Notes under the pieces: model-generated
Seen by the model: only the letters and a program-made list of their open reading frames with translations
What the model was told of the DNA's origin: nothing
Database searches by the model: none
DNA from: a virus
Taxonomy: Duplodnaviria > Heunggongvirae > Uroviricota > Caudoviricetes
Virus record (IMG/VR): IMGVR_UViG_2690316131_000006
Direction: 5' to 3' (one strand)
DNA: 14,375 bases
Program-made: the position numbers and the translations under genes
Shown here: positions 3,310 through 3,846 of the stretch, one piece after another
Position numbering within the stretch: position 1 is the first letter of the stretch
Layout: the number at the start of each line of letters is the position of its first letter

Positions 3310-3846
3310 ATGAGCAGCAAGCTTCATGGTCTTGTCTGGGAAGGGTGCGCCTTCACCGGCATGATCTTATCCAGGGTGGCGGTTATGGCCCGTCTTGCAG
3401 ACTACAGCAATGACGAGGGCGTGTCATGGCCTGCCATTGAAACTATCCGGCGTCAGATCGGTGCAAGAAGTGAATCCACAGTGAAATCGGCTATTGCAGA
3501 ACTGGCGAAAGAGGGCTGGCTGACGAAGGAAGAGCGTAAGGTCGGTGGGCGTAATGTAAGCAATATCTATCGGCTTAATGTGGAAAAACTCGAAGCAGCT
3601 GCGGCGGCGGCGCGTGAGTCATATAAACCGAAAAGAAAAATTAGCCCGGCAAAAAATGACCCGTTAACAGTTGACCCGTCAAATATTGACCCCTCAACGG
3701 TTGACCCGTCAAATTTTGATGGATCAACTGTTGATAAAAAACTGCCGATTAGGGGGCCGATGATTGACCCCGATCCGTCAGTATTAAAACCTGATCCGTC
3801 AGATAAAAGATCTTCTTGTCCGGACGCTTCGCAACCGGACCCGTAG
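3310..3846 (+). CDS. Replication initiator (O-like), N-terminal DNA-binding domain and Pro/Asp-rich linker; ends at an in-frame TAG
   Basis: ATG 3310 preceded by GGGGG; HTH-like region ARLADYSNDEGVSWPAIETIRRQIGARSESTVKSAIAELAKEGWL; linker encoded by the iteron array; TAG at 3844..3846. Confidence 0.7.
   Translation: MSSKLHGLVWEGCAFTGMILSRVAVMARLADYSNDEGVSWPAIETIRRQIGARSESTVKSAIAELAKEGWLTKEERKVGGRNVSNIYRLNVEKLEAAAAAARESYKPKRKISPAKNDPLTVDPSNIDPSTVDPSNFDGSTVDKKLPIRGPMIDPDPSVLKPDPSDKRSSCPDASQPDP
3656..3742. repeat. Iteron array (candidate replication origin): six 12-bp TTGAC-cc-GTCAA-type palindromes at exact 15-bp spacing, followed by an A-rich tract
   Basis: Copies at 3656, 3671 (TTGACCCGTCAA), 3686 (TTGACCCCTCAA), 3701 (TTGACCCGTCAA), 3716 (TTGATGGATCAA), 3731 (half-site, TTGATAAAAAAC); inside the O-like gene as in λ ori. 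Confidence 0.6.

Follow-up and report, generated by a model that had tools for sequence, protein, structure and literature searches.

The initiator gene and its repeat array

The stretch of DNA analysed in this work (the window; 14,375 bases) is contig CYDD01000081.1 of assembly GCA_001284925.1 and contains, inside the coding sequence (CDS) of a phage replication initiator, an array of palindromic repeats with a period of 15 base pairs (bp) that probably constitutes the initiator-binding part of a prophage replication origin. The contig derives from a lambdoid prophage of E. coli and, over most of its length, is 96–99 % identical to prophage sequence in three complete chromosomes of that species. 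The array is surrounded by the genes of a lambdoid immunity and replication module, namely those for a cI-like repressor, Cro, a CII/YdaT-like protein, the initiator itself and a helicase loader. The coordinates of the features are collected in Table 1.

The initiator gene has a GGAGG motif 5 nucleotides (nt) ahead of its ATG codon at 3310. Its product matched phrog_391 ("replication initiation O-like") over the full length with an E value of 4e-115, and a CDS of 320 amino acids (aa) is annotated by RefSeq at locus L001. In the Pfam search HTH_36 at the N-terminus was the sole domain over the threshold (28.9 bits), DnaD_N remained below it, and the lambda O family gave no match to the initiator. 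The designation "O-like" used in the first-pass annotation of this DNA is therefore correct for the role and architecture of the protein but does not extend to homology of its DNA-binding domain with that of lambda O. The product of the adjacent loader gene scored 500 bits against NF009043, which exceeds the cut-off, and 309 bits against the DnaC equivalog, under the cut-off of 357 bits.

Six palindromic iterons at an exact 15-bp spacing had been proposed in the first-pass annotation. The phasing and all six start coordinates proved to be correct and five of the six sites stand, two as exact copies of the consensus TTGACCCGTCAA and three as imperfect ones, whereas at the sixth position (3731) only a left half-site is present. 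The dyad arms are perfect in three of the five sites, that is in the two consensus copies and in site 5, where the arms have changed symmetrically (C to T on the left, G to A on the right) and the centre is inverted; this replaces Pro by Gly in the protein and keeps the palindrome. The arms of the other two sites are imperfect. With up to two mismatches allowed, TTGACCCGTCAA matched the window 8 times, counting each strand separately, where 1.43 such matches are expected; none of 200 shuffles reached this number, and all matches except one fall within 3656–3727. The exception, TTGGTCCGTCAA at 1988 in the repressor gene, has two mismatches and was rejected as a chance-level occurrence; it is the only other copy in the window.

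Tandem Repeats Finder recovered the period of 15 bp (5 copies, 71–73 % matches), and a period of 30 bp scored better (84 %) because two unit subtypes alternate. The site centres, 15 bp apart, are separated by 1.43 helical turns, which puts about 154 degrees between neighbours and agrees with the earlier remark that a period of less than one and a half turns places successive sites on different faces of the helix. Half-sites follow each other every 7–8 bp and the 30-bp super-period is close to three helical turns. The array with its half-site (3656–3735) corresponds to aa 116–142 of the 320-aa initiator and, as had been noted, encodes a repetitive linker peptide (NDPLT VDPSN IDPST VDPSN FDGST VDKKL). 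The A-rich tract reported to follow the array amounts to the AAAAAA run at 3736–3741, which is all the A-rich DNA directly after it. The real low-GC (guanine plus cytosine) stretches are elsewhere: the two lowest-GC 40-bp windows of the gene, both with a GC content of 0.325, flank the array at 3620–3659 and 3780–3819.

Taken as a whole, the array (3666–3732) forms an imperfect inverted repeat (33 + 33 nt, 79 % complementary), and its folding as single-stranded DNA (−16.9 kcal/mol) gives it cruciform potential of the kind discussed for the lambda iterons.

Table 1. Features of the initiator gene, its repeats and the neighbouring genes. Positions refer to the window unless a locus is named.
Feature	Position	Strand	Description
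Replication-initiator gene	3310–4272	+	O-like in role; 320 aa when intact; phrog_391, HTH_36
N-terminal winged helix-turn-helix domain	3310–3594	+	aa 1–95; presumed to bind the iterons; AlphaFold2 model
Site 1	3656–3667		ATGACCCGTTAA; 2 mismatches to TTGACCCGTCAA; arms 3/5 complementary, barely palindromic
Site 2	3671–3682		TTGACCCGTCAA; perfect 5+2+5 palindrome, TTGAC-CC-GTCAA
Site 3	3686–3697		TTGACCCCTCAA; 1 mismatch
Site 4	3701–3712		TTGACCCGTCAA; perfect TTGAC-CC-GTCAA
Site 5	3716–3727		TTGATGGATCAA; perfect palindrome, contains GATC
Left half-site	3731–3735		TTGATAAAAAAC; TTGAT, then AAAAAA; more than 2 mismatches to the motif, not a palindrome
GATC box 1	3771–3781		CGATCCGTCAG; resembles the iterons, one mismatch to YTGA-N4-TCAR; in repeat family D8 (spacing 21 bp)
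GATC box 2	3792–3802		TGATCCGTCAG; CTGA-TCCG-TCAG, perfect palindrome, fits TGA-N4-TCA
Low-GC stretch, candidate unwinding region	3780–3819		GC 0.325; spans boxes; GATC at 3809
Mosaic junction	3805–3827		N-terminal domain, array and boxes upstream; interchangeable C-terminal domains downstream
In-frame amber codon	3844–3846	+	TAG; CAG in the intact copies compared
DnaC-like helicase-loader gene	4279–5019	+	partner of the initiator; NF009043, IstB_IS21, phrog_50
LexA/cI-type repressor gene	1884–2657	−	immunity/replication module
P22-Cro-type gene	2650–2865		immunity/replication module
YdaT/CII-like gene	2862–3287		immunity/replication module
DUF1627 gene	5045–5815		immunity/replication module
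Sister-initiator repeats, E. albertii prophage	L004: 2713–2828
Sister-initiator repeats, Citrobacter prophage	L010: 2508–2644
Sister-initiator repeats, Rahnella prophage	L011: 2361–2427

Conservation of the array and selection on its DNA

Relatives of the N-terminal domain of the initiator were collected from the deposited phages SfIV, phiNP, P7641, YeP1, phiP27, Flotzy and Kp4866-6, from species-representative genomes and from IMG/VR viral contigs. The first scan of viral contigs, by N-terminal alignment, yielded 80 near-identical copies that were useful only for the analysis of microvariation; divergent members were then used as seeds for three further scans, which supplied the diversity of the set. 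The complete set comprised 322 genes, 211 of them distinct over the first 600 bases, and fell into seven clades at 80 % N-terminal identity.

Three to seven units of 15 bp were found at the same place and in the same codon phase in every relative examined, in all seven clades. The carriers include the seven deposited phages listed above, an Erwinia prophage and many IMG/VR contigs. The core TGA-N4-TCA is invariant across the clades, whose consensus units are GTTGACCCGTCAAAT (clade of the window), GTTGACCCATCAACG (Erwinia), TTTGAGGCCTCAAAA (Klebsiella), TCTGACGCGTCAAAA (SfIV), TCTGATGCGTCAAAA (YeP1), TCTGAACCTTCAGAA (phiP27) and TCTGACACGTCAGAA (L171). The flank positions 2 and 13 co-vary between clades, T..A in some and C..G in others, with the dyad preserved. 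The N-terminal domain was invariably co-inherited with the array among the relatives compared and, since the neighbouring genes vary, it is the array's only constant partner.

Among near-identical genes the number of units differs by whole units. No amber codon was found in the 80 near-identical viral contigs. Two of them, the IMG/VR contigs L049 and L068, have in-frame deletions, which remove a single 15-bp unit of the array in one case and a single 21-bp GATC-box unit in the other.

The use of silent positions was analysed in 122 distinct 15-mer units, delimited from the protein alone. The serine of the repeat is encoded by TCA in 113 units (93 %), while in the remainder of these genes TCA makes up 152 of 1077 serine codons (14 %). 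Ahead of GA, the silent third base is T in 107 of the 122 units (88 %), whereas 37 (31 %) would be expected from the codon use of these genes. The peptide repeat x-D/E-x-S-x is exactly the translation of xxT-GAx-xxx-TCA-xxx.

The same tendency was visible in a codon alignment of 18 representatives drawn from all clades. In the folded N-terminal domain (aa 1–95) the majority amino-acid fraction was 0.73–0.82 and the same-codon fraction 0.49–0.57, while in the linker (nt 3655–3819) the corresponding values were 0.54–0.64 and 0.84–0.91. The linker is thus less conserved as protein and more conserved at silent sites, as is characteristic of coding sequence that overlaps a cis-acting DNA element, and the codon pattern indicates that the constraint is on the DNA rather than on the peptide. 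The constrained DNA does not end with the array; it runs to approximately 3819 and includes the two GATC boxes.

Repeats of sister initiators

In prophages of E. albertii, Citrobacter and Rahnella there are initiators whose C-terminal domain is the same and whose N-terminal domains are unrelated. At the same linker position these sister initiators have 3–5 palindromic repeats of 20–23 nt with a spacing of 23–24 bp. This spacing is not a multiple of three, so the repeats cannot be peptide repeats; presumably they are classical lambda-type iterons of their own. By this comparison, the genes are built from a DNA-binding domain that brings its own repeats and, after it, a recruitment domain that can be exchanged.

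DNA adjoining the array

Downstream of the array there are two GATC boxes at a 21-bp spacing. Box 2, as a perfect CTGA-N4-TCAG palindrome, is a variant of the iteron. Boxes of the type GATCC(G/A)TCA, two or three in number and separated by A-rich DNA, were found 3' of the array in representatives of every clade, and a few members of the P27 clade have lost one copy. Four GATC sequences (Dam sites), including those in site 5 and at 3809, are located in the 91 bp between 3722 and 3812, which makes this the densest 100 bp of the window. The bias of GAT versus GAC in the boxes was also considered as a test of selection on GATC and was dropped, as it was not clearly above background and the categories were mixed.

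In phiNP, P7641 and YeP1, which have no DnaC-like loader, an adenine methyltransferase gene is located at the 3' end of the initiator gene or directly behind it (L014: 2370–3251, L015: 2451–3260 and L017: 2977–3441), and it may bear on the conserved GATC boxes of the presumed origin.

The module of N-terminal domain, array and boxes ends at a mosaic junction. With other phages the initiator has just its C-terminal part in common, the matches starting at window position 3805, and some near-identical contigs diverge after ...TCTTGTCCGGACG at 3826, where they switch to another C-terminal domain. Among the relatives the N-terminal module is paired with at least three different C-terminal domains.

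Sequences resembling DnaA boxes were noted as well. TTTTCCACA at 3579–3587 on the minus strand, about 70 bp upstream of the array, is a perfect relaxed box, and a box with one mismatch at 3729–3737 overlaps the half-site. With the pattern TTWTNCACA and up to one mismatch, 31 boxes were found in the window against 29.9 expected; there is no enrichment and no claim is made for them.

Domains of the initiator protein

The N-terminal 110 residues were modelled with AlphaFold2 as a winged helix-turn-helix with a mean predicted local distance difference test (pLDDT) score of 84.7 and the order H-H-H-H-beta-beta-H, the folded domain ending around aa 95–105. In a structure search with this model the nearest solved folds were dimeric regulators of the ArsR/MarR/PadR type, which bind palindromic operators; with E values of about 1e-3 these generic winged-helix regulators support the fold class and not a specific homologue. 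In the model, the N-terminal domain is of a winged-helix type known for dimeric binding to palindromes.

At the other end of the protein, the last 20 or so residues (…EIPPGFRG; aa 300–320, window 4213–4272) show a weak match (E 0.01) to the C-terminal end of DnaT, a primosomal protein (PDB chains 2ru8, 6aep and 9zbt), and this match accounts for the annotation of such initiators as "primosomal protein". A DnaT-like C-terminus, weak as the match is, would fit a role in helicase recruitment, and the tail may be a shared peptide for docking of the helicase or of its loader.

The array as a probable replication origin

We interpret the array as the initiator-binding iterons of the prophage replication origin, written into the DNA that encodes the linker of the initiator, and we put the probability of this interpretation at roughly 0.8. 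The layout proposed in the first-pass annotation, an origin inside the initiator gene as in lambda, finds support in the identity of the gene, the conserved position and core of the repeats, the silent sites, the iterons of the sister initiators and the winged-helix model. An origin of the lambda type has at least three repeated sites with internal dyad symmetry, placed inside the initiator CDS between its N- and C-terminal segments and co-varying with its DNA-binding domain. Here five such sites and two related downstream boxes occupy this position, and other N-terminal domains carry other repeats. Such an origin also has an AT-rich unwinding region beside the sites; in the present gene the 40-bp windows of lowest GC content flank the array, with no long AT tract.

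We infer binding, unwinding, loader recruitment and origin activity at the array as follows. Dimers of the N-terminal winged helix would recognise the dyad core TGA-N4-TCA, which in the clade of the window takes the form TTGAC-CC-GTCAA. The five sites abut at 15-bp centres and neighbouring dimers would sit on nearly opposite faces of the helix; a dimer might contact either the TTGAC-N2-GTCAA or the GTCAA-N3-TTGAC junctions. Two further related sites, the GATCCGTCAG boxes at 21-bp spacing, may extend the complex. The resulting nucleoprotein structure would destabilise the adjoining low-GC, GATC-rich DNA at about 3780–3819, and the C-terminal domain of the initiator would then bring in the host DnaB helicase via the phage DnaC-like loader encoded immediately downstream.

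The selection on the DNA and the dyad symmetry of the sites argue for a protein-binding site and not specifically for an origin. The same winged-helix domain could use a cis-acting site of this kind in autoregulation, in titration or incompatibility, or in superinfection exclusion by a defective prophage. The window does encode a truncated initiator that still has the DNA-binding domain, and according to PMC3349717 fragments of the lambda replication region with iterons can inhibit related phages. However, the sites are mid-gene and not at a promoter (neither promoters nor terminators were found in 3300–4300), and in lambda, P22 and L the origin is assigned to the corresponding position (PMC8022706). 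Complete, inducible phages with the array, such as SfIV, YeP1 and phiNP, must have an origin at some place, and no other repeat array was noticed, without a systematic repeat search, in the stretches of about 3.3 kilobases around their initiator genes. A non-origin role is improbable as the explanation of the array, though it could coexist with origin function.

The repeats could also be read as a pentapeptide linker (x-D/E-x-S-x) expanded by slippage, with the palindromes as a by-product of codon use. The period is indeed a multiple of three, the frame of the unit is identical in all clades, acidic serine-rich repeats are plausible as flexible linkers and the copy number varies as in any tandem repeat. 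Such a linker would not need the fixed silent positions described above, nor a codon identity above that of the folded domain combined with less conserved amino acids. Furthermore, TGA and TCA, read in this frame, specify precisely the D/E and S residues that are conserved, site 5 keeps its palindrome in spite of the exchange of Pro for Gly, and the sister initiators have out-of-frame 23-bp repeats instead. We give this explanation very little chance of being right.

A constraint on secondary structure, such as a single-stranded DNA hairpin or cruciform (e.g. a priming or assembly signal) or an mRNA structure, is just as hard to credit: the array as single-stranded DNA does fold into a 67-nt imperfect hairpin of −16.9 kcal/mol (z = −5.0 against shuffles), but any run of palindromic units folds so, the specific sequence TGA...TCA rather than mere complementarity is conserved across clades while the 4-nt centres vary freely, a change from 3 to 7 units among close relatives would re-pair a long hairpin differently each time, and single units with arms of 3–5 bp and loops of 2–4 nt are too weak for stability.

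Several points weigh against the origin interpretation. A long, strongly AT-rich tract like that of lambda is absent from the gene, where the lowest 40-bp GC content is 0.325. Only two deep groups underlie the co-variation of the recognition helix with the iteron flanks. Units of the same array are not independent of each other, nor are genes of the same clade, which inflates the p-values, although the direction is the same in 7 of 7 clades. We know of no characterised iteron origin with half-site centres every 7–8 bp and sites 15 bp apart, so the mode of binding is uncertain. The literature searched gives no binding or origin-activity data for any member of the family. Finally, the prophage in this strain, and probably those of many E. 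coli carriers, may be defective.

Comparison with known origins

The distantly related initiators of lambda, P22 and phage L each have their own iterons inside the coding region, and these are taken as the origin (PMC8022706). As in the lambda ori in gene O, the initiator sites described here are dyad-symmetric and lie mid-gene in the segment encoding the interdomain linker (PMC7466680, PMC8022706), so the comparison with the lambda iterons suggested by the first-pass annotation is apt, with the reservation that spacing and initiator family differ. In both systems DNA of lower GC content lies on the downstream side, though the AT-rich region is much weaker here; the N-terminal domain is exchanged together with the iterons as one module; and recruitment of the helicase loader is the task of the C-terminal domain in lambda and, by the same layout, would be so here. 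Variation of the iteron number between relatives is another common trait: the lambda origin has four iterons and the origins of Shiga toxin (Stx) phages six, and the number alters the length of the protein (PMC7466680).

The differences from lambda concern the N-terminal domain, which belongs to a different family (HTH_36, with sub-threshold DnaD_N), the partner protein, which is a DnaC-type loader and not lambda P, the presence of the GATC cluster, and the sites themselves: abutting sites of 12–14 bp at exact 15-bp centres and in frame, in place of four 19-bp iterons. The "P27" of PMC7466680 was considered as a representative of the phiP27 L17 type (AJ298298) and rejected, as its O protein is lambda O with two substitutions and an iteron-encoded insertion; because of this closeness to lambda O the experiments made with it do not apply to the present initiator family.

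P22 has four repeats of about 20 bp and phage L six imprecise 11-bp repeats, inside gene 18 (PMC8022706). These resemble the array in being repeat families of their own within a coding region; the comparison was made by description, and repeats and spacing differ. For phage L, as in this work, the origin was inferred from the sequence only (PMC8022706). The initiators of P22 and L are paired with a DnaB-type helicase (gp12), whereas the partner here is a DnaC-like loader.

Iteron plasmids are a further point of reference. Plasmid iterons are direct repeats of about 17–22 bp with a spacing of about 22 bp, bound by monomers and located outside the rep gene. In contrast to these direct repeats with their period of about two helical turns, the tandem units of the array are palindromic, 15 bp or 1.43 turns apart and within the gene, and no sequence relationship was detected. 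Plasmids of the RepA/RepE/pi type share with the present system, as proposed here, a winged-helix initiator, tandem sites beside an unwinding region and the requirement for DnaB/DnaC (PMC4980987).

Dam sites are clustered in the low-GC part of oriC and of P1 oriR, just as four of them are found within 91 bp of the presumed origin. Unlike in those clusters, the GATC sequences here arise from Asp-Pro codons (GAT CCN).

It is possible, but rather unlikely, that this family of arrays uses an origin geometry different from that of lambda. With half-sites every 7–8 bp, i.e. abutting 14-bp palindromes, the initiator could coat the DNA as a continuous spiral filament and not as an O-some. Through the invariant GATC boxes beside the array, firing could respond to Dam methylation, an idea for which the adenine methyltransferase encoded right after the initiator gene in several relatives may be cited. 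If true, the array would also be a natural and clean example of strict dual coding: the DNA motif to which the protein binds would prescribe a pentapeptide repeat in that same protein.

The literature searched, from which most papers in subscription journals were absent, contained nothing relevant on this motif or on iterons in this initiator family. The arrangement is textbook lambdoid and leaves the general picture of lambdoid replication unchanged; the initiator family, the motif and the in-frame 15-bp geometry appear to be undescribed in that literature.

Amber codon and distribution of the initiator type

An in-frame TAG, absent from the first-pass annotation, interrupts the initiator gene at 3844–3846. 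The codon is CAG in the near-identical copy aligned from a complete E. coli genome and in all 80 near-identical viral contigs. With the TAG, translation yields an N-terminal product of 178 aa and the rest of the gene stays untranslated; the product retains the DNA-binding domain and the linker and has no recruitment domain, so the origin is probably not self-sufficient in this strain and is likely to be inactive unless an intact initiator is supplied in trans. At least one further public data set (Logan SRR30894224) contains the coding sequence of the same 178-aa product.

Among 5,426 complete E. coli genomes about 2,900 match the initiator gene, about 1,500 hold most of it and about 1,000 carry copies with at least 99 % identity. 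The initiator type was also found in inducible phages of Shigella, Klebsiella, Yersinia and Citrobacter. The core TGA-N4-TCA, the 15-bp phase and the GATCCGTCAG boxes may serve as a signature for annotating origins in these prophages, and the odd "DPSxx" pentapeptide repeats would be explained as a by-product of the DNA motif. The array also offers a compact system for asking how the spacing of sites shapes initiator assembly.

Other elements of the window

In an Rfam scan the replication gene had no match, and matches above the gathering score were obtained elsewhere for the DicF antisense RNA (323–374, minus strand), the sok antitoxin RNA (7164–7338, plus strand) beside a hok-type toxin, the STnc100 small RNA (13542–13734, plus strand) and the AgvB (anti-GcvB) small RNA (13736–13797, minus strand). 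These four are the usual cargo of Qin-like and other lambdoid prophages. Two-copy short tandem repeats were detected by Tandem Repeats Finder at 120–144 (period 13), 8412–8439 (period 15) and 10949–10971 (period 11).

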